Origin: Minisyncoccia bacterium
GTDB taxonomy: Bacteria; Patescibacteriota; Minisyncoccia; Phycocordibacterales; UBA2100
NCBI GenBank assembly: GCA_049297775.1
Contig: JBAQUX010000017.1
Coordinates: 21,337 to 85,336 of the forward strand
DNA length: 64,000 nt
Direction: 5' to 3'
The position numbers and the translations under genes were made by a program. Shown here one piece after another: positions 6,934-64,000 of this stretch; position 1 is the stretch's first letter; every line of letters starts with the position of its first letter. Below the pieces are notes generated by a model, which made no database searches, had not been told where the DNA came from, and saw nothing but the letters and a program-made list of their open reading frames with translations.

Positions 6934-6994
6934 AGTAGACACAGTATACATAACTACATATTTTTTTCACTATGTTCTTGTTGTACCATAGGGT

Positions 6995-7495
6995 ATGTCT
7001 AAAAAATCAGAAAAACTGGACACTGAGCCGTGCACAGCTCTACTCTACGACCCCACAATAGTATCGTGGGAAACAATTCGACATGACATTCTCAACATTG
7101 AACATGCGACATTCCCAAGCAAGCCGTTTGATGAGAAAGATTTAGAGGCTTTCTTCAAGAACAAAAGTTCTGTAATTGTCTTTCTAAAGGCGGGTACATC
7201 AATAGTAGGATATACATTAGGACACCCAGACCAAGAGCACTATAAATCCCTCTATATCTTTACTACGGGCATTGAGGAACGTTTTCAAGGCAAAGGTCAT
7301 GTAGCGGAACTGATGCGCACTCTTGAACATGAAGCGAAAAAGCGTGGGTTCACACATATAACGAGAGATGCACGAATAGATAATGGATACGCAGATGCAA
7401 TCAGTAGGCATTACGGTTCTCGGATTGATTCATTGCAGACGAGTGAACATGACTCTCCATGGGGTAGACAGCGTTTTTTTAAGATTGCTTTGTAA
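6995..7495 (+). CDS. GNAT family N-acetyltransferase
   Basis: Acetyl-CoA motif RFQGKGHVAELMRTLEHEAKKRG (Q/RxxGxG/A). Confidence 0.75.
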   Translation: MSKKSEKLDTEPCTALLYDPTIVSWETIRHDILNIEHATFPSKPFDEKDLEAFFKNKSSVIVFLKAGTSIVGYTLGHPDQEHYKSLYIFTTGIEERFQGKGHVAELMRTLEHEAKKRGFTHITRDARIDNGYADAISRHYGSRIDSLQTSEHDSPWGRQRFFKIAL

Positions 7496-9257: not shown

Positions 9258-9310
9258 TTAATTATCGAGTAAACGACTCTTGGGTTGGCCCGAGAGTATT
9301 GATACACATT

Positions 9311-10639
9311 CTAACTTTTTTCTTGTAACATTTCACGCACTTCTCGCACCAGATACAGTGAGCCACAGACACAGACAAGCGTACGTGGATCGCTCCCTAT
9401 GCACGCAGTATCAAGTGCCTGCGGTGTACTCGCCTGTACAGAAACAGAGGCGTATATATGCGCCGCAACGTTTTCTAGAACTGAGAGAGAAAGTCCTCGT
9501 GTATGCTCTATTTCTGTAATGACTATTGTTTCAGAAACAGCATGTAACTCACGTAACATCTCTTCAAATGGCTTTCCCGCGAGCGCGCTAAACAACAGCG
9601 TAACGTGTGATTCTAGCTCATGCTTTTTTATGTACGCGACAAGTGTACGTATACCATCAAGATTATGTGCGCCGTCTAATAATACGGGCGTATTTTTATA
9701 CATGCTGTACTCGAGGCGCCCAGGCCACTGCACACTTGCAAGCCCTGCACTATACGCATCAATCGGAATGGTAAGTCCACTATCAACAAGACGTTCTACC
9801 AGCATAATCGCGAGACATGCGTTCTGAACCTGATGCTCACCATGCATTTTGAGAACAATAGGATATGTGCCCTTCTCTGAAACGTAGGTAAACGCATAGG
9901 CACCATTACTATTGGTAACAGCTCGTACACTGTCTTGCATCGAGAGAAAGACTGGCACACCACCACGAGCAGTTATTTCGGTGTTCAGTACTTCGGTGCA
10001 CTCACCGTGTGGTTGGTATCCGATAATGAGTGGAATATTCTCTTTTGCGATTCCTGCTTTTTCTACAGCAATTTCAGTAATGGTGTCACCAAGAAAATCT
10101 TGGTGGTCATACCCAAGTGCAGCTATAGCGCACACGGTGGGCACACATACATTTGTTGCGTCGAGCCTTCCGCCGAGTCCTACCTCAAGAATCGCCACAT
10201 CTACTTGTAACTCGTTGAAATACCAAAACGCAAGGATGGTCATTTTCTCAAAAAAACTTAACTCATCGAGCAGACGCTCATCCGAAGCGAGTATTTCACA
10301 AGTCTCTTTAATACGCATTATTCCCCGACAAAAATCGTCATTTGAAATTGAAACGCCGGAAACTTGGATACGTTCATTAACGGATGAAATGTGTGGCGAT
10401 GTATATAATCCTGTCGCATACCCCGCAGAACGCACGATACTCTCTGTCATCGCAGAGGTTGAACCTTTACCATTTGTACCTGCTACATGCACTACGCGAT
10501 AGCCGTAATGCGGGTTCTGTAAGGCAGTAAGTACCATACGCACCCTTTCTAACCCAGGTTTCATTTTTGTTACCTCATCTCCAGCTTGTGAGAGATATGC
10601 GACTGCTTCATCATATGTCATGTGCCTCAACTCTATCAT
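9311..10639 (-). CDS. folC: Folylpolyglutamate synthase / dihydrofolate synthase (Mur ligase family)
   Basis: P-loop VVHVAGTNGKGST and Mur-ligase middle/C-terminal pattern. Confidence 0.82.
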   Translation of the reverse strand: MIELRHMTYDEAVAYLSQAGDEVTKMKPGLERVRMVLTALQNPHYGYRVVHVAGTNGKGSTSAMTESIVRSAGYATGLYTSPHISSVNERIQVSGVSISNDDFCRGIMRIKETCEILASDERLLDELSFFEKMTILAFWYFNELQVDVAILEVGLGGRLDATNVCVPTVCAIAALGYDHQDFLGDTITEIAVEKAGIAKENIPLIIGYQPHGECTEVLNTEITARGGVPVFLSMQDSVRAVTNSNGAYAFTYVSEKGTYPIVLKMHGEHQVQNACLAIMLVERLVDSGLTIPIDAYSAGLASVQWPGRLEYSMYKNTPVLLDGAHNLDGIRTLVAYIKKHELESHVTLLFSALAGKPFEEMLRELHAVSETIVITEIEHTRGLSLSVLENVAAHIYASVSVQASTPQALDTACIGSDPRTLVCVCGSLYLVREVREMLQEKS

Positions 10640-20391: not shown

Positions 20392-20925
20392 TTATCTTAA
20401 AAATTTTATTAACGTTGAAGGGGACGCATCACACACACCTCCCTCAATGCAGATATCGATACCTTCCGGAAACTGTAGAAGTACTTCTTTTGTCGTAGTT
20501 GCTGGTGACTTCCCTTTCATGTTTGCTGATGTTGAAATAATAGGACCGACACGCTGTATCCACTTAATTAAGTCAGGGTGTTGCGGGAGTCGGCATGCAA
20601 GCGTTCCGTCTGAAGACAAATGATTCCATGTGTCAGAAATTCCTGAAAAAATAATTGAGACTGGCCCAGGCCACACTTGAGAAAGTACGTGCAACTGCCC
20701 TTCCGTAGGTACAATACCAAACATCTGTAGGTCATCTACTGAACCAATAAGGACAATGAGGTGCTTCTCGCTGTTTTCCCCTCGAGACTTCAATTGCTGA
20801 ATTTTAGCAATGGCACTCACGTCTGTAACAGCGCACGAAAGGCCATACACGGTATCAGTGGGACATGCAATTACTAGCCCTGCGGGCATAACGTGCACAT
20901 CATCGAATGATACAGTCTTAGTCAT
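20392..20925 (-). CDS. tsaC: L-threonylcarbamoyladenylate synthase (YrdC/TsaC family)
   Basis: YrdC fold signature LVIACPTDTVYGLSCAVTD; start at MTKTV (ORF open to 20955). Confidence 0.78.
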   Translation of the reverse strand: MTKTVSFDDVHVMPAGLVIACPTDTVYGLSCAVTDVSAIAKIQQLKSRGENSEKHLIVLIGSVDDLQMFGIVPTEGQLHVLSQVWPGPVSIIFSGISDTWNHLSSDGTLACRLPQHPDLIKWIQRVGPIISTSANMKGKSPATTTKEVLLQFPEGIDICIEGGVCDASPSTLIKFLR

Positions 20926-21913
20926 CGTCTTCTGCGTCTTCAACGTCACTATCACCCATCTCAGGAATTCGTGCCATTGCGGTTAACAACTTTCCTATAT
21001 CCCCCTCCATCATGAGATCTACACCAGAGAATGATTCTTTGAGTCGGTGGTCCGTAACTCTATCTTGTGGAAAATTATACGTGCGAATCTTCGCTGAACG
21101 ATCTGTCTTTCCCACTTGCTGCTTTCTGTTTTCTGAACGCTCAGCTGCTTCTGTTTCATCCTTTAATTCTTGAAGGCGCGACATAAGTAACAACATTGCC
21201 TTTTCACGGTTTTGTTGTTGGCTACGTTCTGAAGTACAACGCACGTCAAGACCTGTCGGCTTGTGAATAATGCGCACAGCACTTTCGACTTTGTTCACAT
21301 TTTGGCCACCTTTTCCACCAGCACGAGAAAACTCTATTTCGAAATCTGTTGGTGCGACGACAATGTTTGTCTTTTTGTAGATTGGCAATATCGCTACTGA
21401 TGATGTGGATGTGTGTACCCGGCCCATTTTTTCTGTTGCTGGGATTCTCTGCACACGATGCACACCTGTCTCAAAGCGCATTTTTTTGTAACAGTCCTTT
21501 CCATGTATCTCAAATGTTGCCTCCTTGTAACCGCCGAGCGCAGCACGTGATTCGTAAAGTATTTTCCACTGCCATCCAGAATTATCTGCGAAACGTAAGT
21601 ACATTCGCGCGAGCTCTTCAGCAAAAAGTGCCGCCTCTTCACCTCCTGCACCTGGCCGAACTTCAAGCACAATTTCATTTGGGTACTCCTTAGCAGGATT
21701 ACTACTCACGGCAATTTTTTCAATTTGCATTACGAGCGCTTCTTTCTGAGTACCAATGTCCTCAAGCTCCTTCTCAACAAGTTCTCGCATAGTAGGGTCA
21801 ACTTCAAGTAATTCTTCTGCTTCTTTTTCGCTTGCGCTCAGACGCTTCCATTCTTCCACAAAGTACATGACTCGAGGGTCTTGTGCATACTTTTCTGGAT
21901 TAAACGTTGCCAT
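20918..21913 (-). CDS. prfA: Peptide chain release factor 1 with acidic C-terminal extension
   Basis: GGQ motif (SRAGGKGGQNVN) and PAT tripeptide (RIPATEKMGRVHTS) typical of RF1, not the SPF of RF2; start at MATFNPEKY. Confidence 0.85.
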   Translation of the reverse strand: MATFNPEKYAQDPRVMYFVEEWKRLSASEKEAEELLEVDPTMRELVEKELEDIGTQKEALVMQIEKIAVSSNPAKEYPNEIVLEVRPGAGGEEAALFAEELARMYLRFADNSGWQWKILYESRAALGGYKEATFEIHGKDCYKKMRFETGVHRVQRIPATEKMGRVHTSTSSVAILPIYKKTNIVVAPTDFEIEFSRAGGKGGQNVNKVESAVRIIHKPTGLDVRCTSERSQQQNREKAMLLLMSRLQELKDETEAAERSENRKQQVGKTDRSAKIRTYNFPQDRVTDHRLKESFSGVDLMMEGDIGKLLTAMARIPEMGDSDVEDAEDDD

Positions 21914-21936
21914 AGATGTGTATATATTATAATTAC

Positions 21937-21993
21937 AAAAAAGCACTCAACGGAATATGGCACTACTGTACCACAAACCTATGAGTGCTTTTA
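21937..21993 (-). terminator. Hairpin (aaaagcactca...tgagtgctttt) with T-run on the minus strand after rpmE
   Basis: 11-bp stem with a large loop followed by TTTTTT on the minus strand. Confidence 0.4.
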
Positions 21994-49436: not shown

Positions 49437-49527
49437 ATAATGAAGGCTCGTCAGCGTAAAAATTTCTGCGAACGTGGAATAGTATACAGATTGGCATCTG
49501 CATTTTTTTTTGCTATTCTACCCGTAT

Positions 49528-49598
49528 TGCTAGATCGTCTAATGGTAGGACAGCGCCCTCTGAAGGCGTTTATCTTGGTTCGAGTCCAAGTCTGGCAG
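49528..49598 (+). tRNA. tRNA-Gln (anticodon CTG), CCA not encoded
   Basis: Acceptor TGCTAGA/TCTGGCA with U1-A72, D arm GTCT..GGAC, anticodon stem GCGCC/GGCGT with loop CTCTGAA, T arm CTTGG TTCGAGT CCAAG, discriminator G. Confidence 0.75.
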
Positions 49599-51275
49599 CA
49601 AAGTAAACGAGTGAGCATCTAAACTGCTCTCACAGGCTTGTATAGAGCCAATTCTTTGTGGTTCTAACCTCGCATTAAGCGATTCTGCTACATTTGATAC
49701 GTTTTTAATGCCCAGTAGTGCTGCGGGCAAGCAAATACTGAGTTTTTTATCCTTGAGCGTGAGGTTCGAGCCAAGACCTTCAAGAACTTCTTTTTTAGCT
49801 TGCGGGTCGTTACTCGTAAGTTTCTCTTTTGCGTGTGTTGCAAAGTCTAAATATCCATTCGCAATGCCGGCCCAGTCGATTGCACGTTCGTGTACTTGTT
49901 GTGATGTATAGCGCACGTTGTTTAACTCCTTCTCTACTACACCTCGAGTTGCCAGTAGTTGCTCTGAACTAATCTCACCACTTGCTCGCATCATAACGAG
50001 GTTGTCCAGCTTTTTCATAAGTTCTGTCTCGCGCTTGCGGTTCTGCTGCACGATATGCTCTTGGTCATCAATTTCATTTCTGTGCAGATACTTTATTCCC
50101 TCGATTGCCCATTCATAGAAATCCTTCTCAATATGAATCTTTTGAACTTCCGCGAGTATCTGTGCTTCTAACTCTGCGGACTCCATGTACGGCTGCGCAC
50201 AGGCACCTCGCTTTTGCGTACAACGGTAATATGTTTTGTCTACAACCTTTAAACCTTTCATATCACTCGCATCGGTCCCACAGCGCGGGCACGCTGTAGA
50301 AATACGCATCGAAAACTTTTCTTTGCATTTGGGGCATCGAGCGTGCACTTTTCGTTCTGCCGTAATTGAACAGCCACATTCGCCGCAGTGTATATTTCCC
50401 CTAAATGGAAAAGTGTAAGTATTTATTTTTGTCGGCTTTCCACGCCTTCCAAGGAGTCTCTGGACCGTATTGAACTCGTATTCAGACACCATCACTTCAT
50501 GCTTCCCAATAAATTGGCCCTTATTGCCCTCTTCATCGTTCCACTCGAAATGCCCATAGTAGAAAGGGTTTGTGAAGATGTTGTAATAGCTTGCACGCGA
50601 ATAGATTTGACCACTCTTGTTCTTTAAGCCCAAAGCATCTCCCTCGCGCTTAATATCTGGCACAGAATACTGCCCAGAAATCATCTTCTTCCAAAGAACT
50701 TTCACAATTCCAAACGAATCAGACCGAACAATCTGATCTCCAAGCTTACCTTTGCCGCGGTGCGCGTAGCCTGGCGGCAATACAGACGCAGGGAACCATC
50801 CAAGTGAGGCTTTATATCTCTGACTGCGCTTTACGTCCGTACTTAAATCTTTTACATATTGATTCGACATGCCAAGCTCTACTGCCATCATCATGATATT
50901 GTCTGCAGGCTTGTAGACCCCAGAATGTGTTTGTATGTAAGCAATTTTTCCACTCTGCAACATGTGAATGATCTTCCCGCCATCTACAAAGTTTCGCGCG
51001 AGGCGATTTATCTTCCAACAGATAATCCCATTTGCCTCACCCTTTTCAATCCTTTTCAACATTGCATTAAAGGCGGGCCGTGCCTCTGGCTCTTTAGCGG
51101 ACTTGCTTTCCAAAATAACGTCGAGGATGTTTATCCCTAGTTTTAAAGCTAGGGACTTCATTTCACTTACTTGGTTATCAAGCGACAGGACCTGCTTATC
51201 CTCAGTGTCCGTAGACTTTCTTCCATACAGAAAGCACTTTATATCTCTACTTTTCAGGGGGTTAAAGTTGTTCAT
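49539..51275 (-). CDS. Large serine recombinase (integrase), 3' end overlapping tRNA-Gln
   Basis: N-terminal resolvase-type catalytic domain (FLYGRKSTDTEDKQ with catalytic Ser; ICWKINRLARN), recombinase domain, Cys-rich zinc-ribbon (CGECGC..CPKC..CPRCG), C-terminal coiled coil. Confidence 0.85.
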   Translation of the reverse strand: MNNFNPLKSRDIKCFLYGRKSTDTEDKQVLSLDNQVSEMKSLALKLGINILDVILESKSAKEPEARPAFNAMLKRIEKGEANGIICWKINRLARNFVDGGKIIHMLQSGKIAYIQTHSGVYKPADNIMMMAVELGMSNQYVKDLSTDVKRSQRYKASLGWFPASVLPPGYAHRGKGKLGDQIVRSDSFGIVKVLWKKMISGQYSVPDIKREGDALGLKNKSGQIYSRASYYNIFTNPFYYGHFEWNDEEGNKGQFIGKHEVMVSEYEFNTVQRLLGRRGKPTKINTYTFPFRGNIHCGECGCSITAERKVHARCPKCKEKFSMRISTACPRCGTDASDMKGLKVVDKTYYRCTQKRGACAQPYMESAELEAQILAEVQKIHIEKDFYEWAIEGIKYLHRNEIDDQEHIVQQNRKRETELMKKLDNLVMMRASGEISSEQLLATRGVVEKELNNVRYTSQQVHERAIDWAGIANGYLDFATHAKEKLTSNDPQAKKEVLEGLGSNLTLKDKKLSICLPAALLGIKNVSNVAESLNARLEPQRIGSIQACESSLDAHSFTLLPDLDSNQDKRLQRALSYH

Positions 51276-51328
51276 GGTTTTTGACTAGGTTGTTAAAGTA
51301 TACAAGAAAGTTTTGACTGGCGAAAATA

Positions 51329-51550
51329 TTACAATTTCCCCGAAACATTTTTCACAGAACTTATAAAGCGCATTAACCTCAATCCCTCTTCCTGAGCACA
51401 TTCATAGGATATATCTACACCAAAGTGTAACTTGTATAAACTCATGTATTTGAGTATATGTTCCTTTGGTAATACCATGTTTGTTTTGAAAACTTCTCCC
51501 TGCTTCTGGAGTATCAAAGGAATACGGTGAGGGAAGCTGTGTGTGGGCAC
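51329..51550 (-). CDS. Hypothetical small protein (73 aa)
   Basis: Only ORF between integrase start and a 340-nt ORF-free stretch; weak support. Confidence 0.25.
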   Translation of the reverse strand: MPTHSFPHRIPLILQKQGEVFKTNMVLPKEHILKYMSLYKLHFGVDISYECAQEEGLRLMRFISSVKNVSGKL

Positions 51551-51889
51551 AGATTCTCTTGTGTTGTCATTTTCTTCTCCCTGCCCCTGGATACACCATT
51601 AGGTTTCCGGCGATTTAGAAGACATATCAGCATTGTCTCCGTTGGGAAGTTTCTCTGTTTATGCCGCGTGTCAGTTTGGATTATATGCTGTGTTTATGGC
51701 GGGCATACGAGTACCACAAACACCAAACTGATCTATTTTAAAGTGCTCATCCCTCGGTCCAAGCACTTACGATGTTGACAACATCACGTATATTTCACTC
51801 GCTACACACACATCGCGTAGTAATGCGAGGTCCTTTAGCCTTACTCCTGCAAGGCATGGTCAAAGAATATATTTTGCTAGGTTAAAAAA

Positions 51890-51925
51890 ATATGCAAAAT
51901 AAGGTCGCGACCTTATTTTGCATAT
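51890..51925 (-). terminator. Perfect 36-nt palindrome (atatgcaaaataaggtcgc|gcgaccttattttgcatat) overlapping the stop of 51913..52665; T-run on the minus strand
   Basis: 18-bp perfect stem without loop spacer, followed by TTTTTTT on the minus strand. Confidence 0.55.
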
Positions 51926-52665
51926 TTCCTTATTTCGTCCCTTATTTCCTTGCGTATTCTTAATATATGAGCCTGCTCATACTTTTTCCCAAACTTTGAT
52001 TTCACGCTGTCACTAAGTTTACCGATACCCAACTCGACATTCTTCCGAATATGCTCCCTCAACTCTTGGGATGATTCCTTTGGCCTTCGTGCTATTCCGA
52101 GTTTCACCTTAGGATTTTTGTGATATTTTTGCATCGGCAAAATCTCTCTCTGGTACTGATTCTTTACAAAACTAAGAATATCTTCCTTTGACACATATGG
52201 TGAAATGAGAATGGCGACAGGGTGATTTTGTACATTATGGCGAAGACCGTCTTCAAAAACTTGCTTCTCCTCTTTGTCCCAGTGCGGACCATTCAACTCT
52301 AACTGTATATTTACAGTTTGGATAAGTCCGTGCATTTGCAAATCTAGAGAGCCGCTCGGAAGCCAATCGTTGTAACATACATAATAAGAAAAAGTTTCAA
52401 CCCATATTGGCTCGAGCTTGAGCTTTTCGAAAACAATCTTTTCTATATCCTGGTAGAATTGTTTAGGAAGCGATGGTGTAGTTATGTTTTTCTCCTTACC
52501 GGGGAATCCTTTAACGCGAGCAAATGTTTCGTACCCACCCAACGGGATACCGTACTTTTTTCTTATCTTCCTAATTGATTCTGAAAGAGGGCGTTTTTCA
52601 ACCGTACTCATTAAATAGCTCCACACTTTTTGGTTTGGGTCTTGCATACGGATTGTGTCACTCAC
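51913..52665 (-). CDS. Hypothetical protein (250 aa, Lys-rich C-terminus)
   Basis: Clean ORF with strong terminator; no recognisable family. Confidence 0.5.
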   Translation of the reverse strand: MSDTIRMQDPNQKVWSYLMSTVEKRPLSESIRKIRKKYGIPLGGYETFARVKGFPGKEKNITTPSLPKQFYQDIEKIVFEKLKLEPIWVETFSYYVCYNDWLPSGSLDLQMHGLIQTVNIQLELNGPHWDKEEKQVFEDGLRHNVQNHPVAILISPYVSKEDILSFVKNQYQREILPMQKYHKNPKVKLGIARRPKESSQELREHIRKNVELGIGKLSDSVKSKFGKKYEQAHILRIRKEIRDEIRKYAK

Positions 52666-52897
52666 AATTTTAGTCCCTATATGATAAAATAACCAGTACG
52701 CCCTGGAAGGGGTGGCACCTAACCCTATTCATCTCACGATGAGCAGGTATGGTGCACAGTCGCAAAAAGCATAGAAAACCCGTCATTGGGGTGCTTTTTG
52801 CGCCGTACAGGGAAACTTGTATGAGGGAGAAATCCCTACCTTCAGTGGCGGGTTTTTTGAGTGCCACGTTTTGCTTATCAATTTTCATTACAAAAAC

Positions 52898-53092
52898 ATG
52901 AATATAAAATGCGCACTCATTGCATTCATTGCCTACCTGGTACTCCTTATGATCGTAGTCACCTCTGGCATGGCGCATGGATCATCCGACATCGTAAGTA
53001 TGTTACTTGTTCTGGTTGCGATAGGAGTATATAAGCTGTGCGCAGTATACGAACCTAATGACAAGCAAGAGGAGAAAACAATCAAAGAATAA
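52898..53092 (+). CDS. Small 2-TM membrane protein
   Basis: MNIKCALIAFIAYLVLLMIVV.. start at ATG 52898 inside the ORF 52817..53092. Confidence 0.35.
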   Translation: MNIKCALIAFIAYLVLLMIVVTSGMAHGSSDIVSMLLVLVAIGVYKLCAVYEPNDKQEEKTIKE

Positions 53093-53478: not shown

Positions 53479-54211
53479 CGAATCCGGACTAGTGGCACTG
53501 ATGAAGTACGTTGAAGGCTCGGGCATGTGTCTCGAACACACCTGCACCACCTGCGGCAACCAAGACTTCCGCACCGCTCTCGCTTTTGTTGCCTATGGCC
53601 ACAGTCCCGCGAATAAACAAGACTGGACAGAGACAACGAAAAGCCATGACAGCACAGCGATACCGCTTTTGTATAGAGGTAACACGCAAACCCACCTACA
53701 AAACAAGCTGCTAGAGGCGATAAAAGGCACTCTCTGGCACGAAACTGTGCGTGTAGCACCAAAGTCCTGGTTCGATATGATGCGCATCATTCTGGACAGT
53801 TTTAGGGGTAATAAACGAGCAAAGGATGTCTCAATGGTTATCGCACGTGACATGCTGCAAGTTGCCGTACCCGGGACCGAACTGCATACACAGCTTGAGC
53901 GAGTCGCAGCAGTTGATACTGCTGATGTTCTCACAGGCACGCTACTGCTACTGTTTGCGCGAGAGGACAGAAGAAACGACACGCCGGAGAGCATGAATAG
54001 ACTCGAAGAGATAAACAAGCGCGCAGGCTCGCTATCACTTGCAGATGTAGAGATTCTCACCGATGCGGAGGTTTTGAGTATGTCGGTCCCACGCCCGGGG
54101 CACCCGACACATCGTGGTTTTATGCTCAATCCCAAGTATTTCAAAGACCAAGAGCACTTCTCGCAGATTACTCACACGCTCATGCAGCGACTAATGCGTA
54201 TCAAGCACTGA
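53471..54211 (+). CDS. Hypothetical protein with CxxC cluster (CLEHTCTTCGN)
   Basis: 246 codons, no recognisable family. Confidence 0.5.
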   Translation: MNNESGLVALMKYVEGSGMCLEHTCTTCGNQDFRTALAFVAYGHSPANKQDWTETTKSHDSTAIPLLYRGNTQTHLQNKLLEAIKGTLWHETVRVAPKSWFDMMRIILDSFRGNKRAKDVSMVIARDMLQVAVPGTELHTQLERVAAVDTADVLTGTLLLLFAREDRRNDTPESMNRLEEINKRAGSLSLADVEILTDAEVLSMSVPRPGHPTHRGFMLNPKYFKDQEHFSQITHTLMQRLMRIKH

Positions 54212-54440
54212 TTTTGTACGTAACCGTCACAACTCAGACAATTCCTTCAGGCCTGGTCTTTTCCGTCACTTTCCGTCATGACGGATTGCAACTTAACTTT
54301 TACACTTCTACGGCTTAAGTCTTGGAGGCTGGGTGACGGATTCTCCCACAAAACCTTCAGTCCTAGCGAATAATCTAAGCTGTATGTGCAGATTCGGCTC
54401 GTGTAGTTGTATCGTCTCGATTTAGGTCTATACTTGCCCT

Positions 54441-54659
54441 ATGTATATCCTCACACAGTACTTCATAACCTTCGGTTGGGCACTTACCGCCGCCCTCTCT
54501 ATGGCTGTTGCTATTAGCATTGGTCTTAAGATATTCACCTACCTTTCTCCTATTGATGAATGGGGAGAAATAAAGAATGGCAACATGGCTATGGCTGCAA
54601 TTCTTGTCGCCACCATTCTCGGTATGGCATACGTAGTAGCTGCTACCATTAACGCATAA
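54441..54659 (+). CDS. DUF350-like small 2-TM membrane protein
   Basis: 72 codons, two hydrophobic helices separated by EWGEIKNGN loop. Confidence 0.45.
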   Translation: MYILTQYFITFGWALTAALSMAVAISIGLKIFTYLSPIDEWGEIKNGNMAMAAILVATILGMAYVVAATINA

Positions 54660-54661
54660 CT

Positions 54662-54985
54662 ATGAAAGCTGTGGTGTGTCTCACTCTTGTACTTCTTGTC
54701 GCTCCCGCGGTTACATTTGCACACCCGGGTAGAACAGATGCTAGTGGGTGCCACACTAACAAGAAGACCGGTGAGTATCACTGTCACGGCACTACCCCAG
54801 ATGTTCGCACCGCCCGGACCGAGGCACGATCAGAAGCTCGTAATATCTATGACAAGGATTGCAAAGACTTCCATACACAACAAGAGGCGCAGGACTTCTT
54901 TATTTCACAGGGAGGTCCCACTTCAGACTCACATGACTTGGACCGAGATCATGATGGTGTGGCATGTGAAGACTTACGGAAATAG
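54662..54985 (+). CDS. Secreted protein with C-terminal Excalibur calcium-binding motif (DLDRDHDGVACE)
   Basis: Signal peptide; DxDxDGxxCE motif at C-terminus. Confidence 0.6.
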   Translation: MKAVVCLTLVLLVAPAVTFAHPGRTDASGCHTNKKTGEYHCHGTTPDVRTARTEARSEARNIYDKDCKDFHTQQEAQDFFISQGGPTSDSHDLDRDHDGVACEDLRK

Positions 54986-54987
54986 CC

Positions 54988-55497
54988 ATGAAGGGTATGT
55001 ACATAGTCGTAGGTGTTTTGGTATTGCTCGCAATGCTTTCCGGCGGCACGAACACTGTTGAAAAAGCCGGTGAAGCAGAGTCTGAGGCACATTCATTTGC
55101 AGTAAGCACACCTACCGCAACCCCGAGTACATATAACAACTACACGGGAGAGTACGATGAGCCCGAAGACATAACAATAGATCGTGTTGATGCAATATAT
55201 GATCATTGGGACGAGATCCGTGAGTATGTTAATGGCTCAGAGACAATAGAGGCATGTTCCTCCTCAAGTGGTAACTGTTATGACTTGGATGCTGATATAT
55301 CATCCGGCTCTATAGAGCAGATAGGCTTCGAGAATGGAGGATATCTCTACTTTTCAGCAGAGATTGATTCAGATGGAAATGCATCTGACACTGATGTGCG
55401 AGGTGACAGTTGGGATTTTACATTAGATATGGACTCTTCTATCGTTGATGATGCCGTACAGGAGTGGGCAGACTATGAAGGGTATGAGGTGGAGTAG
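54988..55497 (+). CDS. Secreted acidic (Asp/Glu/Ser-rich) protein
   Basis: Signal peptide, highly acidic low-complexity body. Confidence 0.5.
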   Translation: MKGMYIVVGVLVLLAMLSGGTNTVEKAGEAESEAHSFAVSTPTATPSTYNNYTGEYDEPEDITIDRVDAIYDHWDEIREYVNGSETIEACSSSSGNCYDLDADISSGSIEQIGFENGGYLYFSAEIDSDGNASDTDVRGDSWDFTLDMDSSIVDDAVQEWADYEGYEVE

Positions 55498-55499
55498 TC

Positions 55500-57791
55500 T
55501 CACATATTGTCAACCGTTGTCGCTTCATTTGCCAACGAGATACTCCCAGGACCTTCATCTGTTGAATCTTCCTTATCTAAAAAGAGCAACTCTCTTTCGT
55601 TCAATTTAGCTATGACTGGCTGTTTCAACTTCAATGCCTTTCCGATTATTATCGCATGTCTATCATCAAGTGTGGGAAGAATATTAGAGAAATCTGAACC
55701 GATATAGTTTTCTAGAAACTGTTTACCAGTGTCATCGAATACTCGCAAAGCGAATATTGTATTGCACTGATTCAAAATACTTTTACTTATATTTGCAGTG
55801 CGCTGAGTAACTACCATACTACCAAGACCGTACTTTCTTCCTTGCAATATAACTCTCGCCGTACCATTTGCAGCACTCTTGTCACCCTCATTTGCAACTG
55901 AGTTCCATTCTGGTATCAACGAATGAGCCTCTTCGTACACCAAAAATGCTTTTGCCTTTTCGGTTAAACCAGAGTCTCTACAGATTTCTAAAACTGTCTC
56001 GGACAATATCCGCGTAATCTCTGCAACAGACATCTCAGAGAATGGTGCGTACATCGACCAATTTTTCCCATCAAGTTGTCCGTTTTTTACATTCTCTTCT
56101 TGCTTCAGCGCAGTGATCTCCTCTGGATTTACTACTAAAACTCTTTTGGTGTTTTCTGTACTAAAAAATGCACCAAGCGCAGACCTCAGACATTCTTTGA
56201 GCAATTCAATGTCTCCACCGTCATGCTTAGAAACTTTTGGGATAGTTCTTGTTGTTTGCGTCGCAAGTTCGCTATTTAGTGTGGAAGTATCGAAAACCTA
56301 AAGTGCATCTTCTTGCAGGTATCGAGGTAAGCCGTGACTTTTATTCGCATACTGTCCTGTAATATCTATACATATTATTTTTGTCTCAGTTTTAGCACAA
56401 AGCTTTTGTATAAGTTCAAATGTTAAACATGACTTTCCTACACCAAGAATACCCAAAATAGCAGTATTATGTGTCACCAACGCATCGTAATCAGCAATTT
56501 GCATAACAAAATCTGTCCCCGGAAGTCTGCCGATACTATCTCCAGGTTTTATTTCCGCATGATTTTCCTGCGCGAATAGAGGCGCATACCCGTCCGGAAC
56601 CCATTTTGCCGTTAGTATTTCCTTTTTCTCTACGCTATATGTGCCAAGTTTTCTTGCGACACCCACAAGATATGAGTCGTTGTCGTGCCCAATGAGGTCA
56701 TCTCGTTTAGTAAATCCATCAAGTACTTGATATAGAACGTCTACGTTTCTAACCATAGAGCTCACAATCATCCCTTCTGTGATTTGAGAGCCCACATCGT
56801 TATTAAATATTCTAAACTGGACTTTATTAATATGTGAGTCTGGTAGAACATACCCTACGAGTGACTTACGGTTTTTGTATAACTCTGTGTTTTGTATGCG
56901 CCCCAGAGTTTCTGAATCAATATCCGCAGCATTCATTTTATATGCCTTATGGCTCGAGGTAATGTTTGTAGTTTCTGATTCAAAAACTTCACTGGTTAGC
57001 TCAGAAAGTACATGAACTAAAATCCAATTTTTGTCCAGTAGCATATTTTTTTGTACGACCACACCAAAACTCTTCTCCCCACGCTCATGAATCCTAACAA
57101 GGTCGCCCAAAGACACACTTTCTTGTGTATTCCTTGGATCTATTTCAACCTTAAATACGTATTTACTCTCATTACCAATTACTTTTCCTAAATATGTTTC
57201 TCGATCCCAAAGATTTCTCAAAAACTTAAATATGCCATCAATGACGTTTTCAACCAGGAAGCCTGAGATGAATACTACCCAAAAAGAAAAGAGTAAAATC
57301 TGGGCCACTTTATCTGATTGAAAATATGAGAATGTGGTGCTCAAGTAGATAACCGAATAAGCGACTTTTGATCTACCGAAATAAGTTAAGATGTTGCCGA
57401 AGATGTCAAAATATTTTGAATGTTCATATTTCCTAACAAGTAGTATGTAAAGGACGGAAAGTCCAACAAGCATTGAGGCGCACCCAATGAGAAAATCTCG
57501 CCCAATATATGCGTCAATGTCGTTTATGCCTAAGAGGAAGAGCAGGACACCAGTTGCATTAACCAGAACATCTGTAACTTTTGTAAAAAAAGGCTCGGCA
57601 ACATATGCGCCAAAAATAAGGAGTAGTCCGCCTGACACAAATATTTTGTTATACTGTGTTGAACTATCCAATATTGCCCAGAAATCTCCACCGGTTAGGT
57701 ACGTCAAGATTCCTAGTAGTACAAGTATATACACAACCACAACTAAAATCCTTTCTTTGAATCCCAGCTCTATTTTGGCTAGTGAAGACAT
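55500..57791 (-). pseudogene. Membrane-anchored HerA/FtsK-superfamily P-loop ATPase interrupted by a single in-frame TAG (56298-56300)
   Basis: N part (56298..57791): six TM helices, HAS-barrel-like segment, Walker A GILGVGKS. C part (55500..56204): Walker B FLVYEEAH and VVTQRTANISKS (TQRP-like) motif. Both parts are in the same frame; 31 sense codons lie between the TAG and the called TTG start. Confidence 0.7.
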
Positions 57792-57879
57792 GTCGAGAAG
57801 TATATCACTTTGCTTTATTTTTCGCCTTGGATGATTTTTCTACACTCATCCGTCCGAGAGAATAACGATCCTAACCTCC

Positions 57880-58284
57880 CTAAGGGTAGAGACTCGCGTA
57901 GTATTGTGCAATCTTCGTCATATCCGACTCAAAACGTTCCTTATCATCTTTGAATAAGCTCTGGGAACCAAACAGCGGTGAATCTGGCTCTGAAAAAACG
58001 TAAAAATCCCCCTGTACTGCTTCGCAGTGTGGGCATACATTTGCCCAATATTCACTATCACTCATTTGTGTGTAGCTTACTTTTACAGTTTTCGGTATTG
58101 GCTCAGGAGGTACTGATGGCTCATCTGCCCACTCATCTTCAGGCCACACGAACGCAACCATCTCCCCTTTACATTTCCAGCATTTATAGGGAGCGTAGCG
58201 GTATTTATATCCTTCAGGTAACGACACCTTAGTTGCCTCAGATATACGATTTATTACCAATAGAAACTGTTCGAGATTTTCCAT
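57880..58284 (-). CDS. Small zinc-ribbon protein (CWKC ... CPHC)
   Basis: 134 codons with two CxxC pairs; co-oriented between the 1011-aa gene and the ATPase. Confidence 0.55.
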   Translation of the reverse strand: MENLEQFLLVINRISEATKVSLPEGYKYRYAPYKCWKCKGEMVAFVWPEDEWADEPSVPPEPIPKTVKVSYTQMSDSEYWANVCPHCEAVQGDFYVFSEPDSPLFGSQSLFKDDKERFESDMTKIAQYYASLYP

Positions 58285-58333
58285 ATTTTATGATAGATCA
58301 CTGAAACTATTGCTTGCAAATAGATTTATTGCT

Positions 58334-61300
58334 CTAGTCTTTCTTAACAATATCGACCAGCGGCCAAAATGGCTCACTGCCTGCGGCGACTAAATCATTC
58401 ACAAGATCTCTCACAGCAGGCCTCAATTTTTCATTAGAGTAGAGGGCTGTAAACGCCTCTTCCCATGTTTCGTCAATATAGACCCACCGCAATTCATCGT
58501 TGCGTAACTTGTTATCACTTCCAAGGAAGTGTAGACGAATGATTGTAAGCGTATCTTCCGGTGCTGCGTTTGCCAGCAATGGGAGTGACTTGGTCATACC
58601 GTGATCCCAACTGAGGAGTCCCGAGGTCTTCTCCATAGTTGCTCTCAGGTGCTTTGCTAAATAAGGTAAGGATATCACACCCTCCTCCGCATCAACCCAA
58701 AGCCCAAACGACGAGAGTATTACTCGACTTTCAATATGCTCATTTGCCCAAGTCCAAAATGCGAGCAAACGTTCGAGGAAGAAGTGGTTGTTTTTTGTTT
58801 GTTCTTCTATCCATTTTTTGGCACCTGACCTTGAGAAGGCCTGCCCGCCAATAAACTTAATAAACTCTGAGAGTCTTTCTTCATTCTGTGTGTCAATAAA
58901 CCTCTTTAGAATCTCACTATTCTCCGGTGAAAAATTGTCGTAGTGCATGAACGCCAAACCGAAGTGCGTAGCAAGGCCTTCGTCTAGATCACGGAAGTAT
59001 TTGCGCTTCGTGTACCGATCTTTATTCAACTCCATTAGGTAAGAGTATTCGGGCTGCATTGCCGTGAACACGTCGTACCACAGACCAGACGTTAAATATC
59101 CCTCCATAGCGGCAAGGTACAAATCGTTATTATTTCTATCGAAAATCATCCCAAAATGCTCTTGCATCCATTTCGGGTCTCGTAGGTAAAATGTTGCGAG
59201 ATACTTACCAAACAAGAATCTAACCGCACGAGTCTTCTCATTCTGAGCTAGCAGTACGTAGATAGACTTCACATCATCGCTTAAACGTATTTCGTCAGTC
59301 TTCTTACCTTTCTTTTCCTGCAACTGCACGTCCTTATCCACAAACATTGCAAGTGCCTGAAAGGCACGGCCACGAACAGAGTTTATAGCCTTTGTAAAAG
59401 GATCTGACTCCGAATACTCCTCTTCACCATCGTACTTAGTTCTGAGCTTAGGAATCTCTTCCTCTGGCGTAGGATCACTACTGACAAGCAGATATGCAAG
59501 GGTCTCGATGAAAAATTGCCTATTCTTTTCAAAACTGACAGGCTCACCGTCATACCTAAGCAGGTGGTGCAATAAATCTGTCAATGCCACACAAACCCCA
59601 TCCCAGTCAGACAAAAAGAAATCCTGGTTATTCTTATCACGAGTAACCTTAGAAAAAGGATTCGATTTACCAGATTCAATTATTTTTTGAATAAAAGTTA
59701 TTACACTGCTCTGTTGGTCAGGAGTGAGCTTGCCGTCTTTTTTTAAGTAACCAATAACACCCCAAATATATTTGTATGTATAGCCGGGGTCGATACTTTC
59801 CCGATCAAAGAAGGATGCGGCATTGTCGAGGTATTCAGACGGTCTCTCCGCAAAATCCTCTTCAATTTCTGCCGCAACCCCAGAAGCACTAATTGGCCTC
59901 AGGAAGTTTTGACTTGTATCTTTAATATTTTCAGGCCTAAGACGAGTCTTAAGCAGCTCGATCACTTCGTTAAGTGGCTTACCCTTTACAGACTCTGGTG
60001 CCTGTGGAATAACAGTGCCACCTGTCACTCCACTCGACATTGGTGTAGGTATGTAGTTTGGGTCTAACTTCCAACCTAACCCTTGCATTTTTGCCTTCAG
60101 CTCTTCGTTTAAATGACTGTGAATACATGACGCAATGCGAGAGGCACGAATAAGCGAAAATCTTTTTTCGTCCTCTTTTTCATCAGCGGGAAAGAGCTTG
60201 AACAGGCCATCTATATATTCACTTTGTTGTTCATGAGACAGAAAGTTGAAATGTCGCTTTAGCAAAGTTGCATACTCAGCGCCATACATTAAGTCGTGCA
60301 GCTCTTCCTTATTCTTTACGTATAGTATTCGCTGAATTGCCTCCACGATTACATCCTTAAGTGCATCTGGAGTCAAAGACATCAGTGAGAGCTTTAGTCT
60401 CCATGTTGTCTCACTTTCAGTCAAAGCTCTTGGAAACTGTTCGTATACGTGCACAATATTTAGAGCAAAAGCATTCTCAACAGCCTTCTTATACAGCAAC
60501 TTGTAAACTGCAAAAAGACTTCTGATATCTTCCTGCGAGTAGCTCTCTATATTTAATACATCCAGTTCAAAAAAGTCTACATCGGAAAAATAAAGCCCAT
60601 CATCGAGTCCTGATTTTGATTCTTGAGGATACATTTCCATTGCGAGTTTTACTACACGGTTGAGTGCATCATGCACAATATTCAAGCTCTGCTCAGGTTC
60701 ATTTGTGGAGAGTAGTGCTTCCACAACTCCCGTTCGTTTAAGATCATCTACATAAAACCAGCGTCGTGAATACGAATGTTCAACGTCGCTATTCTTCTCG
60801 ACACCTTTTACCGTAAGGACAATTTGTGCCAACTTGTTGATGGTGGTATCGTCACCCGCACTCTTTAAAGTCTTAAACATTTCATCATACTCAAATCCCC
60901 AAGTTCTGTAAGCTGCAAGCCAGTGCACCCAATCTTCGGCAACCATTTTTTCAACAAACTTTGCAAGATTTTCTGGTGAAAACTTAGTGGCAATACTGCG
61001 GAAGCGAAGCGGGATATTCACATTTACATTTCCCTCTTTCAGAGGTAGCGATAGAATGTGCTTTGCAACCAAATCTTCATCAAACTCAACCATTCTTTCT
61101 AAAAAACGCATCTCGGGAGAGAAATATGTTTCTTTACCTATTGTATCAAGACTGAACTTTTCAATTGTCAGAAACTGATTTTCAATCAACCACAACAGCC
61201 ACTCTTTGCCAATTGTCGAAAAAATAAATCTTCTAGCATCTAAACTTGGGTTAGAAAGTTGAACAAACAATTTCGCGGCGGAGTTACTGTTAAAGTCGCC

Positions 61301-61369
61301 GTTCACGATCTTTGTAATCTCATTATGAATCTGAATTGGATCAGTTGCCATATTGGTTGTTTTCTTCAT
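58334..61369 (-). CDS. Large hypothetical protein (1011 aa, predominantly alpha-helical, no recognisable catalytic motif)
   Basis: Uninterrupted 3-kb ORF, 29-nt overlap with the upstream 250-aa gene. Confidence 0.6.
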   Translation of the reverse strand: MKKTTNMATDPIQIHNEITKIVNGDFNSNSAAKLFVQLSNPSLDARRFIFSTIGKEWLLWLIENQFLTIEKFSLDTIGKETYFSPEMRFLERMVEFDEDLVAKHILSLPLKEGNVNVNIPLRFRSIATKFSPENLAKFVEKMVAEDWVHWLAAYRTWGFEYDEMFKTLKSAGDDTTINKLAQIVLTVKGVEKNSDVEHSYSRRWFYVDDLKRTGVVEALLSTNEPEQSLNIVHDALNRVVKLAMEMYPQESKSGLDDGLYFSDVDFFELDVLNIESYSQEDIRSLFAVYKLLYKKAVENAFALNIVHVYEQFPRALTESETTWRLKLSLMSLTPDALKDVIVEAIQRILYVKNKEELHDLMYGAEYATLLKRHFNFLSHEQQSEYIDGLFKLFPADEKEDEKRFSLIRASRIASCIHSHLNEELKAKMQGLGWKLDPNYIPTPMSSGVTGGTVIPQAPESVKGKPLNEVIELLKTRLRPENIKDTSQNFLRPISASGVAAEIEEDFAERPSEYLDNAASFFDRESIDPGYTYKYIWGVIGYLKKDGKLTPDQQSSVITFIQKIIESGKSNPFSKVTRDKNNQDFFLSDWDGVCVALTDLLHHLLRYDGEPVSFEKNRQFFIETLAYLLVSSDPTPEEEIPKLRTKYDGEEEYSESDPFTKAINSVRGRAFQALAMFVDKDVQLQEKKGKKTDEIRLSDDVKSIYVLLAQNEKTRAVRFLFGKYLATFYLRDPKWMQEHFGMIFDRNNNDLYLAAMEGYLTSGLWYDVFTAMQPEYSYLMELNKDRYTKRKYFRDLDEGLATHFGLAFMHYDNFSPENSEILKRFIDTQNEERLSEFIKFIGGQAFSRSGAKKWIEEQTKNNHFFLERLLAFWTWANEHIESRVILSSFGLWVDAEEGVISLPYLAKHLRATMEKTSGLLSWDHGMTKSLPLLANAAPEDTLTIIRLHFLGSDNKLRNDELRWVYIDETWEEAFTALYSNEKLRPAVRDLVNDLVAAGSEPFWPLVDIVKKD

Positions 61370-62093
61370 GTTCTGATTCTAGTATCAAGGAGTACATTTG
61401 CTCGTCGATTTTATTGAAGACATGCTCAGTCAACTCCTTGTGACTTTCAAGCTTGTTATATCCATTGATCAAATCTTTAAACTTATTTAGACTCTCAGAG
61501 GTAGGGAGTAAGCATTCCTTTCTTGCAATTTCTCCTAGGAAACTTATTGCACTAACATAGTCCTTTCTATCTACACATCCACATGCACTCTTATATGATG
61601 TAATCGAGGAATTGTAACTGTAGATCTGTGGCATCTTTTCAATTATGTAGCTACGTCGCCCGCTTACTTTAAATGCTTCAGGCTCTGCACTTAGACTTCC
61701 AATACCACTTGACACAGGGCCGAAAAAAATACTTTCAATTGGGCCATTAACAACTGTTTGATGCACAGTCGATTGTTCGTTTGCAGAAGCGACTGCACTG
61801 GCCTTACTGAGGTCGGCATTGCCAGCTCCTATTGTATCTTCTCTTCTAAAAAAGCTCGTTGCGAGGCGATGAAAACCTGTGCCCATCAAGAACGTCGCGA
61901 ACAGCGTCATTGCGTATTGATAAGTAAAATCGTCTGCTTGAAAATCAGGGAAGAGAATATTATGTAGAAATGGGTATGCGATTGCAAAAGTCTGCCCGAA
62001 GACAAGTTCACCAGCACTAACAAGCCAGGGTGCAGAATCAACCGATTGATTCGCATCTGAGAACATTTTTTTAACTGATTCGAGTGCATTCAT
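61341..62093 (-). CDS. Hypothetical protein (250 aa, one hydrophobic segment)
   Basis: First gene of the minus-strand operon; preceded by a 380-nt AT-rich region with a palindrome. Confidence 0.5.
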   Translation of the reverse strand: MNALESVKKMFSDANQSVDSAPWLVSAGELVFGQTFAIAYPFLHNILFPDFQADDFTYQYAMTLFATFLMGTGFHRLATSFFRREDTIGAGNADLSKASAVASANEQSTVHQTVVNGPIESIFFGPVSSGIGSLSAEPEAFKVSGRRSYIIEKMPQIYSYNSSITSYKSACGCVDRKDYVSAISFLGEIARKECLLPTSESLNKFKDLINGYNKLESHKELTEHVFNKIDEQMYSLILESEHEENNQYGN

Positions 62094-62194
62094 CGATGGT
62101 CTGACTTAGATACACATTATACCACGCGCATAATACAGGTTCTAACCTTCCTAAGTTCTGCCAGCACATGAGCGGAGCGAAAGTGATGACAGAA

Positions 62195-62216
62195 GTTATC
62201 AAATAGTTTTGATAAC
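62195..62216. promoter_or_regulatory. Perfect 9-bp inverted repeat with 4-nt spacer (GTTATCAAA tagt TTTGATAAC), candidate operator
   Basis: In the intergenic region upstream of the 61341..62093 operon. Confidence 0.35.
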
Positions 62217-62270
62217 GCCTTGGACTCGAAGACCGGAGCGATGTTTTTGTTTGCAGTACTCTGCAAGGCA

Positions 62271-62292
62271 AAAACCGCGAGGTCCGGTTTTT
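62271..62292. terminator. Bidirectional terminator hairpin (aaaaccgcgaggtccggttttt)
   Basis: Stem aaaccg/cggttt flanked by A-run and T-run, downstream of the 62476 gene. Confidence 0.4.
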
Positions 62293-62475
62293 GGAAAAGT
62301 GAGTCAACACTTTTACCAAAAAGAGTCGAGTCTGGCAGCCAAGTTTAGTTAATAGAAGATAAAAAAAACGTTTATAAATAGTGTTTTTTATTAGAAAATT
62401 ATTTTTTCACTTTTACAATAATTTTTCATTACTGCCCAACTTTTGATACCCTGACAACAATTATCAATTTTATAA

Positions 62476-64000
62476 TTAATACTTGTTGTTAGCAGGAAAC
62501 AACTTTCTTGCTTCTGCCAAGTTAACTCTGAATTTATAGCCGTGCTTTTCTAGTAGCCCAAGTAGCTTTGCACCATCAAGCAATGTTATTGGTTTGTTTT
62601 GAACGAAAGCATAAGCATCTGCTCCAAAAGTACTAGTGGTAACAAGTATTCCTCTTGATGCACCTTCATGAGCGACAACTGCGACCAAGTCTCTTACAGC
62701 ACTCACATCTACAGTGTTTGTATATCTTTTAGCTTGAATTACATACTTACCACCCCTAATAGGGTCAGGATTAAAGACAATAGCATCGACGCCTTTATCA
62801 CGGCTCGATTGAGTTAATTTAATCTCTGTTCCTTCTTCAGAAAACTCTTTTTGGAAAAGCTCAGCAATAAGGTTTTCAAAATCCTGCCAATCCATTGATG
62901 CAAGGTTGGTTTGCGCATCTAGTGTTCCAATCACTTCCTTGGTCTTAATAAACCTCTTATCCTTTTTATCCAAAGACATTACAGGAGACACAGGAATAAT
63001 ATCTATCAATTTACCTGCAGACTTTCCTTTAAGACCTAAGAATGCCGACAACGGATCGAGCTTAGATAACTTAAGTTGAACTATTTGCTCTTTGGTTGTT
63101 GCAAGTGAAGCTGTATATGTACGAGTTAAATTACCTGTCGCAGGATCATCAAATTCTACCCAGCCATTAAGGACAAGGAGTTTAATTTTATCTGCATCAT
63201 CGTTGCGAAATATTTCATATGCAATTCGCAGCATAACAGAAGGATGTATATTCGGAATTAATTCCTTACCTTCTTTAATCGTGAGAGGTTTCTCAACTGT
63301 CTCCCTTTTGAGATGGACTTCCTTTAGGACTTGATTGTGTACAACATCAGGCAACTTTATTTCGACAATTGCAATACCCTCGTTAACGTCAAAGTCTATA
63401 TCCCAAACTTTAGGAATAGATGCTGGAACAGTGATGTTATCAATGACAAAGTTAAATCGTTTGATAACGTCTTCTTTTTCGCCTTTTTCATAACCACTTC
63501 TTATAGCTTTGAAGAAAGCTTTCGCTTCATTTCCTTCTTGAATATCCTTCTCGATTGTCTTATTAAACTCTGCTATTTCATTATTTAAGGCATAAATTGA
63601 AGCAAGGTTTGTAAGCTTGTTGCTCTCAACCTTTGAAGAAAACGACGGGAAAGGCTTGGTCTTATGCGGTTGTTTAACCAAATCTTTTTCAAGTTCATCC
63701 CAAGGGTGCAAATCGGCAGAAAGTATTAGAGGTATATCCTCAATACAAAGACTACCCTTCTCTTTTCTCTGTCGAGTTGATTTTAACTGTGAAGAATCTT
63801 TTCTTTCTGCTTTAACCTTGGCAAATTCTGCTCTATACCTTTTTACGTTACGCTCAACTTCTTTTATTGTTTCTTCCTGCTCCCATCTTTCCATTCTTAA
63901 TTTTCTTTCCTTTTCTGCTCGCTCATTATCCTCGGCTTGGTTTCGAGCTGTAATTATATCTTTTTCTGCTTGTAATTCTTTTTTTCTGTCAGCAAAGGCA
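62476..64000 (-). CDS. Mrr-cat (restriction-endonuclease-like) domain protein with long coiled-coil/charged N-terminal region; 5' end beyond window
   Basis: C-terminal MDWQDFENLIAELF...GVDAIVF...VIQAKRY...RGILVTTSTFGADA matches the Mrr N-terminal catalytic domain pattern. The reading frame stays open upstream of the called ATG (63894) to position 64000. Confidence 0.7.
   Translation of the reverse strand, partial: AFADRKKELQAEKDIITARNQAEDNERAEKERKLRMERWEQEETIKEVERNVKRYRAEFAKVKAERKDSSQLKSTRQRKEKGSLCIEDIPLILSADLHPWDELEKDLVKQPHKTKPFPSFSSKVESNKLTNLASIYALNNEIAEFNKTIEKDIQEGNEAKAFFKAIRSGYEKGEKEDVIKRFNFVIDNITVPASIPKVWDIDFDVNEGIAIVEIKLPDVVHNQVLKEVHLKRETVEKPLTIKEGKELIPNIHPSVMLRIAYEIFRNDDADKIKLLVLNGWVEFDDPATGNLTRTYTASLATTKEQIVQLKLSKLDPLSAFLGLKGKSAGKLIDIIPVSPVMSLDKKDKRFIKTKEVIGTLDAQTNLASMDWQDFENLIAELFQKEFSEEGTEIKLTQSSRDKGVDAIVFNPDPIRGGKYVIQAKRYTNTVDVSAVRDLVAVVAHEGASRGILVTTSTFGADAYAFVQNKPITLLDGAKLLGLLEKHGYKFRVNLAEARKLFPANNKY

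Follow-up and report, generated by a model that had tools for sequence, protein, structure and literature searches.

A premature TAG codon within an accessory membrane HerA-type ATPase gene of a Minisyncoccia bacterium, probably a recent nonsense mutation

Organization of the disrupted gene and its product

The window, a 64,000-nucleotide stretch of contig JBAQUX010000017.1 from a Minisyncoccia bacterium, carries on its minus strand a disrupted gene for a membrane HerA-type ATPase (55500..57791), delimited by translation, end-to-end homology and a fold model. From the ATG at 57791, the frame runs for 764 codons to its natural stop, TGA at 55500-55502, and the joined product is counted as 763 codons plus an internal TAG. 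That TAG, codon 498 (56298-56300, minus strand), is the sole in-frame interruption of the gene. Upstream of it is an ORF of 497 aa (56301..57791, minus strand; listed as 56298..57791 when the stop is included) that encodes the membrane and barrel domains and the part of the ATPase that contains the P-loop. After the TAG, the first start-type codon in frame is TTG at 56204 (codon 530), from which a same-frame ORF of 234 aa (55500..56204, minus strand) encodes the Walker B half. Between the TAG and the TTG are 31 sense codons (56205..56297, minus strand), and the 265 codons downstream of the TAG contain no other stop and no frameshift.

An initial annotation of this DNA had described two ORFs that share one frame and are separated by a single TAG and 31 sense codons, and minus-strand translation reproduced this description exactly. 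The TAG also falls, as had been proposed, between Walker A (GILGVGKS; codons 447-454, 56430..56453, minus strand), which precedes it, and Walker B (FLVYEE; codons 616-621, 55929..55946, minus strand), which follows it; both motifs occupy columns that do not vary in the family alignment. The 31 codons had been taken for a domain linker; according to the alignment and the fold model they are instead an insertion within the ATPase domain that varies across the family and is in part modeled with low confidence. Nowhere else in the whole window does a TAG lie between two stop-free stretches that share a frame and each span 120 codons or more. At the six further junctions of this kind in the window the single stop is TAA, and these were taken to be boundaries between adjacent genes. 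Because the joined product aligns over 95-98% of its length with more than 100 uninterrupted homologues and HerA profiles match on both sides of the TAG, the same-frame arrangement is far beyond chance.

The protein was matched by Pfam DUF87 (PF01935), the HerA central domain, at residues 420-485 (31.4 bits, cut-off 23.2), and by the PADLOC HerA profile with E=2e-8 for the N-terminal part and 1e-24 for the C-terminal part. Profile positions 146-212 were matched before the TAG and positions 415-530 after it, and thus the TAG divides one HerA domain. HerA chains were also matched in a profile search of the PDB (E down to 3.5e-22) and were the top Foldseek matches, with 450-627 aligned columns and a probability of 1.00. 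No FtsK_SpoIIIE or coupling-protein Pfam match was found in the protein, DUF87/HerA alone being detected. Five hydrophobic segments were evident in the hydropathy plot within residues 7-188. The fold model of the joined protein (mean pLDDT 72.8) consists of transmembrane helices (residues 11-195), a beta barrel (202-431) and a RecA-like ATPase domain (443-730), and in this model the TAG is positioned past the strand that follows the P-loop helix and just ahead of helix 502-511, near a loop (residues 514-525) with pLDDT below 50. The protein has three of the features that define the HerA clade, namely a DUF87/HerA match, Walker A followed by Walker B, and an all-beta domain N-terminal to the RecA-like core. 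Pfam, PADLOC, hydropathy, the fold model and Foldseek therefore agree with the earlier assignment as a membrane HerA-like ATPase. As translation stops at codon 498, the ATPase of the disrupted copy cannot be complete.

Authenticity and decoding of the TAG codon

The source is a metagenome-assembled genome, in which a single base difference would suffice to turn a sense codon into TAG, and an error in sequencing or assembly was one of the explanations initially offered. The TAG and its 30-nt flanks (63 nt) are identical in Logan assemblies of three different sequencing runs, SRR28011841 (contig of 9.9 kb), SRR28011690 (5.4 kb) and SRR28011830 (2.2 kb), and each contig matches the window with 100% identity. 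For both the 497-aa and the 234-aa product, two NCBI accessions exist, titled 'MAG: ... [Minisyncoccia bacterium]'. In JGI metagenome contigs, an exact-pattern scan for the flanks with the codon left free (GAAGATGCACTTNNNGTTTTCGATACT) gave 0 matches and no sense-codon variant. With the same TAG in three assemblies made independently from single runs, an error of assembly or consensus is excluded for practical purposes, and a true sense codon at this position is exceedingly improbable.

Some relatives within the Patescibacteria have altered genetic codes, and in Gracilibacteria and Absconditabacteria the altered codon is UGA. Another reading of the interruption is that TAG has been reassigned to an amino acid throughout the genome of this lineage. 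In the window, TAG terminates roughly one long ORF in every three or four, and TAG-ended proteins reach the last position of their NCBIfam profiles, as for FolC (400/400), a SerB-like protein (219/219) and a LuxG-type flavin reductase (232/232). The window also carries an RF1 gene (20918..21946, minus strand) with GGQ and PxT motifs. Its identification as prfA in the initial annotation was borne out by the best NCBIfam match (prfA, 366 bits, versus prfB, 233 bits), yet the score is under the curated cut-off of 400. Neither the absence of TAG as a terminator nor the loss of RF1, the marks of an alternative code, was found, and the HerA site is the only TAG in the window that divides two long same-frame stretches. 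TAG is an ordinary stop codon in this Minisyncoccia genome, and the probability that it has been reassigned is negligible.

Ordinary genes that end precisely on TAG, together with the presence of RF1, also weigh against meaningful read-through, in which the TAG would be decoded by tRNA-Gln(CUG) as a near-cognate, or by a suppressor tRNA whose gene lies elsewhere, so that a gene with potential toxicity would yield complete protein in small, adjusted amounts. Such a mechanism is consistent with the intact sequence downstream of the TAG, with the presence of a tRNA-Gln(CTG) gene at 49528..49599, and with Gln being the commonest residue at the TAG column of the family alignment. The only tRNA genes in the window are tRNA-Thr(TGT) and tRNA-Gln(CTG), and no tRNA with a CUA anticodon was found in the 64 kb searched. 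The base after the TAG is G, and TAG followed by G is not known to be a leaky context. RNA folding of 131 nt around and after the TAG gave a minimum free energy of -20.5 kcal/mol, compared with a mean of -23.7 kcal/mol for shuffled sequences (z=+0.93), and thus revealed no unusual structure that might stimulate read-through. A stop at this position is conserved in no homologue. Read-through or suppression, also among the initial proposals, found no positive support in the window and is quite unlikely.

In a more elaborate scheme, the TAG would act as a conditional switch that keeps a HerA defense gene off until a phage brings an amber-suppressor tRNA(Gln). The intact downstream half and the preference for Gln at the TAG column are compatible with this scheme; the island contains no second TAG-interrupted gene, no relative has a conserved stop, and we know of no TAG-recoded phage of these bacteria. 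A switch of this type is highly improbable, and it is to the same degree doubtful that a suppressor tRNA from a phage using TAG as a sense codon reads this TAG at a position where the family favors Gln.

Homologues, translation signals and loss of the gene

Searches of protein databases with the joined 763-aa sequence returned 603 relatives, of which the best 120 have 712-801 aa and align over 91-99% of the query with 39-46% identity (E down to 5e-195). These relatives combine a multi-pass membrane domain, a beta barrel and a HerA ATPase. None of the 120 listed proteins is split at the point of the TAG. For genome loci, one genome per species was scanned, 304 loci were found and the best 80 were examined; none of these 80 is split at the point of the TAG. 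A stop at the TAG column was likewise absent from 73 aligned genome copies and from 18 aligned proteins, and in solved HerA structures a single chain spans the equivalent position. The comparison with homologous loci suggested in the initial annotation thus revealed none that naturally ends at the TAG with a separate gene downstream. Three of the 80 loci are disrupted, each at another position (two by frameshifts, one by a late premature stop), and a few further loci are broken by contig ends. Given these three cases, disruption is nothing exceptional in the membrane-HerA family.

A -10-like box (TATACT; 57799..57804, minus strand) is located 7 nt upstream of the HerA ATG and is probably the promoter of the gene, which would imply a leaderless mRNA or one with a very short leader. 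In scans with promoter and terminator consensus sequences, counts around the HerA gene were no higher than in shuffled sequence. Across the window, a -10-like box (TA[TCG]A[ACT]T) is found within -18..-4 of the ATG at 16 of 41 gene starts, compared with 2.3% of random positions, and a Shine-Dalgarno core precedes 5 of 41 gene starts, compared with a background of 9%. As an observation in its own right, the abundance of -10 boxes and scarcity of Shine-Dalgarno sequences at the gene starts of the window suggest that this Patescibacteria genome relies largely on leaderless or very short-leader mRNAs.

These signals bear on the possibility that the gene is functionally split, with translation reinitiating at TTG 56204 and the 497-aa and 234-aa pieces assembling into an active ATPase. 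The downstream ORF is unbroken and resembles the family no less than intact members do, the break is within a variable, partly disordered insertion, and a Shine-Dalgarno-like GGTGGAG is found 8 nt before the TTG. This string is, however, a by-product of conserved Gly-Gly-Asp/Asn codons in a genome that hardly employs Shine-Dalgarno sequences and mostly places -10 boxes directly before the ATG; no -10-like box precedes any in-frame ATG, GTG or TTG within 130 codons downstream of the TAG (codons 530-625). Residues 499-529 are absent from any two-piece product, and no split member occurs among the 120 listed proteins and the 80 genome loci. A functional split is unlikely.

The condition of the sequence after the TAG was assessed in an alignment of 73 intact genome copies, with columns of at least 90% conservation counted as conserved. 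The post-TAG part of the disrupted protein retains 69 of 70 conserved columns, the mean for intact members being 97.4%. Dividing C-terminal by N-terminal identity gives 1.54 for this protein and 1.51 +- 0.10 for intact members. Because constraint on the post-TAG part shows no relaxation and neither a further stop nor a frameshift has arisen there, the nonsense event appears recent. Continued selection would leave the downstream part equally undecayed if the C-terminal piece were translated or a read-through product were made. Ratios of nonsynonymous to synonymous substitution (dN/dS) were not usable because the closest relative in a search of 5.8 billion proteins is only 46% identical. The TAG column of the family is variable, with Gln the commonest residue (16 of 60 non-gap entries), followed by Val, Lys and Glu, and the flanking stretch has indels. 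A single base change to TAG from CAG, or from AAG or GAG, is plausible, and the original codon was probably CAG (Gln).

The gene is part of a variable cargo segment (55499..62129) that comprises the HerA, 134-aa, 1011-aa and 250-aa genes and is replaced in a near-identical strain. A contig from GCA_021733565.1 is 99.4% identical to the window over 49475..52867, 95.6% over 53524..55498 and 99% over 62130..62338, and between these flanks (6351..10580 of that contig) contains a 143-aa gene together with UvrD-like and OLD/AAA_15-TOPRIM genes that form a Gabija-like pair. In eight contigs from another project, a 247/1007/133-aa module lies directly against the Excalibur gene (6003..10204 in one of these contigs), and both HerA and the 169-aa gene are absent. 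The hotspot of cassette exchange adjoins the large serine recombinase and tRNA-Gln genes, and the GC content of the HerA gene is 39.0%, compared with 43.6% in the first 49.5 kb of the window. Because HerA is absent from the eight contigs and the segment is replaced by Gabija-like genes in the near-identical strain, the gene appears to be dispensable cargo in this hotspot.

The disruption is likely a recent loss-of-function nonsense mutation in an accessory membrane HerA ATPase gene. Among the three explanations originally offered (recent nonsense inactivation, read-through or suppression, and a sequencing error), recent inactivation is favored, as relatives are unbroken, the TAG is real and an ordinary stop, and the downstream part is undecayed. 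The stop is premature with respect to homologues and is confirmed in three independent runs, as expected of a nonsense pseudogene. A single base change would have converted a sense codon to TAG. The gene so affected, dispensable and acquired horizontally, encodes a stand-alone membrane-anchored HerA-type ring ATPase and belongs to a hypervariable defense or mobile island. Ribosomes would then halt at codon 498 and release a 497-aa fragment, the only product predicted from normal decoding. This fragment would contain the membrane domain, the barrel and the P-loop and would be missing Walker B, the arginine finger and the sensor residues, for which reason we infer that it is inactive and cannot hydrolyze ATP. 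The 265 downstream codons would be an untranslated remnant, too young to have decayed. Loss of HerA may have been neutral or favored, for instance if the gene was costly or toxic.

The finding is correct yet biologically ordinary. Like ordinary nonsense pseudogenes of accessory and defense genes, this copy has one premature stop, unbroken relatives and a location in a turnover hotspot; it presents no material difference from them and was caught very early, before secondary decay. The NCBI calls 'DUF87 domain-containing protein' and 'ATP-binding protein' are best combined into a single gene annotated as disrupted, which offers a clean, small example of ongoing gene loss in a defense-island hotspot of a reduced-genome CPR bacterium.

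The membrane-HerA family and the neighboring island genes

The 304 family loci span Patescibacteria, Bacteroidota, Clostridia, Proteobacteria, Chloroflexota and others. When all flanking ORFs of the 80 loci were clustered, no conserved partner gene emerged. The largest flanking cluster was a large serine recombinase (13 of 80 loci), and the neighbors of HerA in the window were found beside family members at none of the 80 loci. Relatives were absent from the IMG/VR viral contigs scanned and are rare on plasmids, with only 2 full-length copies in 72,556. Members occur alone, some of them beside integrases, or inside type I and type III restriction-modification operons. Elsewhere an intact family gene follows N6/N4 methylase and ResIII genes, in some cases together with a PD-(D/E)XK-type gene; three contigs have the arrangement methylase, ResIII and HerA, and two of these also have a DUF2779 or PD-(D/E)XK gene. 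On an Arcobacter plasmid (CP146529.1, 519..13708), which carries the intact member WWW13109.1, a type I restriction-modification operon reads hsdS/hsdM ... SLATT, DUF87, RNA-binding protein, hsdR. This distribution and these contexts fit a passenger of defense islands. Among the papers listed by literature searches on membrane-anchored HerA in defense, none described the membrane-HerA family or experimental work on it. The family is widespread and apparently uncharacterized and is a reasonable candidate for a single-gene defense factor; the disrupted copy is not suited to such work.

The best profile and fold matches are the HerA proteins of the SIR2-HerA and DUF4297-HerA (Nezha) systems (PDB 8wiv/8wod, 8xau, 9c1m, 8ziq, 8j4u), with which the family shares a barrel and RecA-like core, Walker A and B motifs, a single chain and an occurrence in defense islands. 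Nezha HerA is soluble and is accompanied by an adjacent SIR2 or DUF4297 effector, whereas the family has an N-terminal membrane domain of about 190 aa and no conserved partner; identity to Nezha-type HerA is only 12-19%, and the copy in the window is cut by a stop. Among the neighbors of HerA in the window, neither Pfam nor PADLOC matched a SIR2 or DUF4297 effector, and the locus does not classify as Nezha. The fold and motifs are also those of archaeal HerA from the HerA-NurA end-resection machine (PDB 4d2i, 9x1m), but HerA in the window has no NurA, Mre11 or Rad50 context, is membrane-anchored and is part of a bacterial mobile island. Membrane-anchored DNA pumps of the FtsK/TraB/VirD4 type belong to the same superfamily as HerA and are built of an N-terminal membrane anchor followed by a ring ATPase. 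Their architecture is similar to that of membrane HerA, and 13 of 80 family loci have a serine recombinase nearby; in contrast to these pumps, the family has no conjugation genes nearby, and its contexts are mostly restriction-modification and defense genes.

Several neighbors of the HerA gene were also annotated. The three-gene module of 250, 1011 and 134 aa (57880..62093, minus strand) is present with 84% nucleotide identity in eight other metagenome contigs. Its 1011-aa protein matches the C-terminal region of Dsr1 only (PADLOC, E=7e-21, positions 713-1076 of 1227) and has no SIR2 domain, and the 250-aa and 134-aa proteins gave no matches; the module may be an uncharacterized defense module. 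Just past the variable segment, a 472-aa protein (62476..63894, minus strand) has a C-terminal Mrr_cat nuclease domain (Pfam, E=1e-31) and matches the PADLOC type IV methyl-directed restriction enzyme profile (E=1e-45).

To the left of the variable segment, tRNA-Gln(CTG) (plus strand) overlaps by about 60 nt the 3' end of the serine recombinase gene (49539..51275, minus strand), which encodes a large, Ccr/XisF-like protein of 578 aa. This overlap suggests that the region to the right of tRNA-Gln is an integrated element; with 13-nt seeds, no repeat of the 3' end of tRNA-Gln that could mark the far border was found within the window. Farther to the right, a LOOT RNA (Rfam RF03000; 52716..52837, plus strand) scored 74.3 bits against a gathering score of 46.4 and is antisense to a 102-aa ORF (52670..52978, minus strand), which public gene callers predict to be protein-coding.
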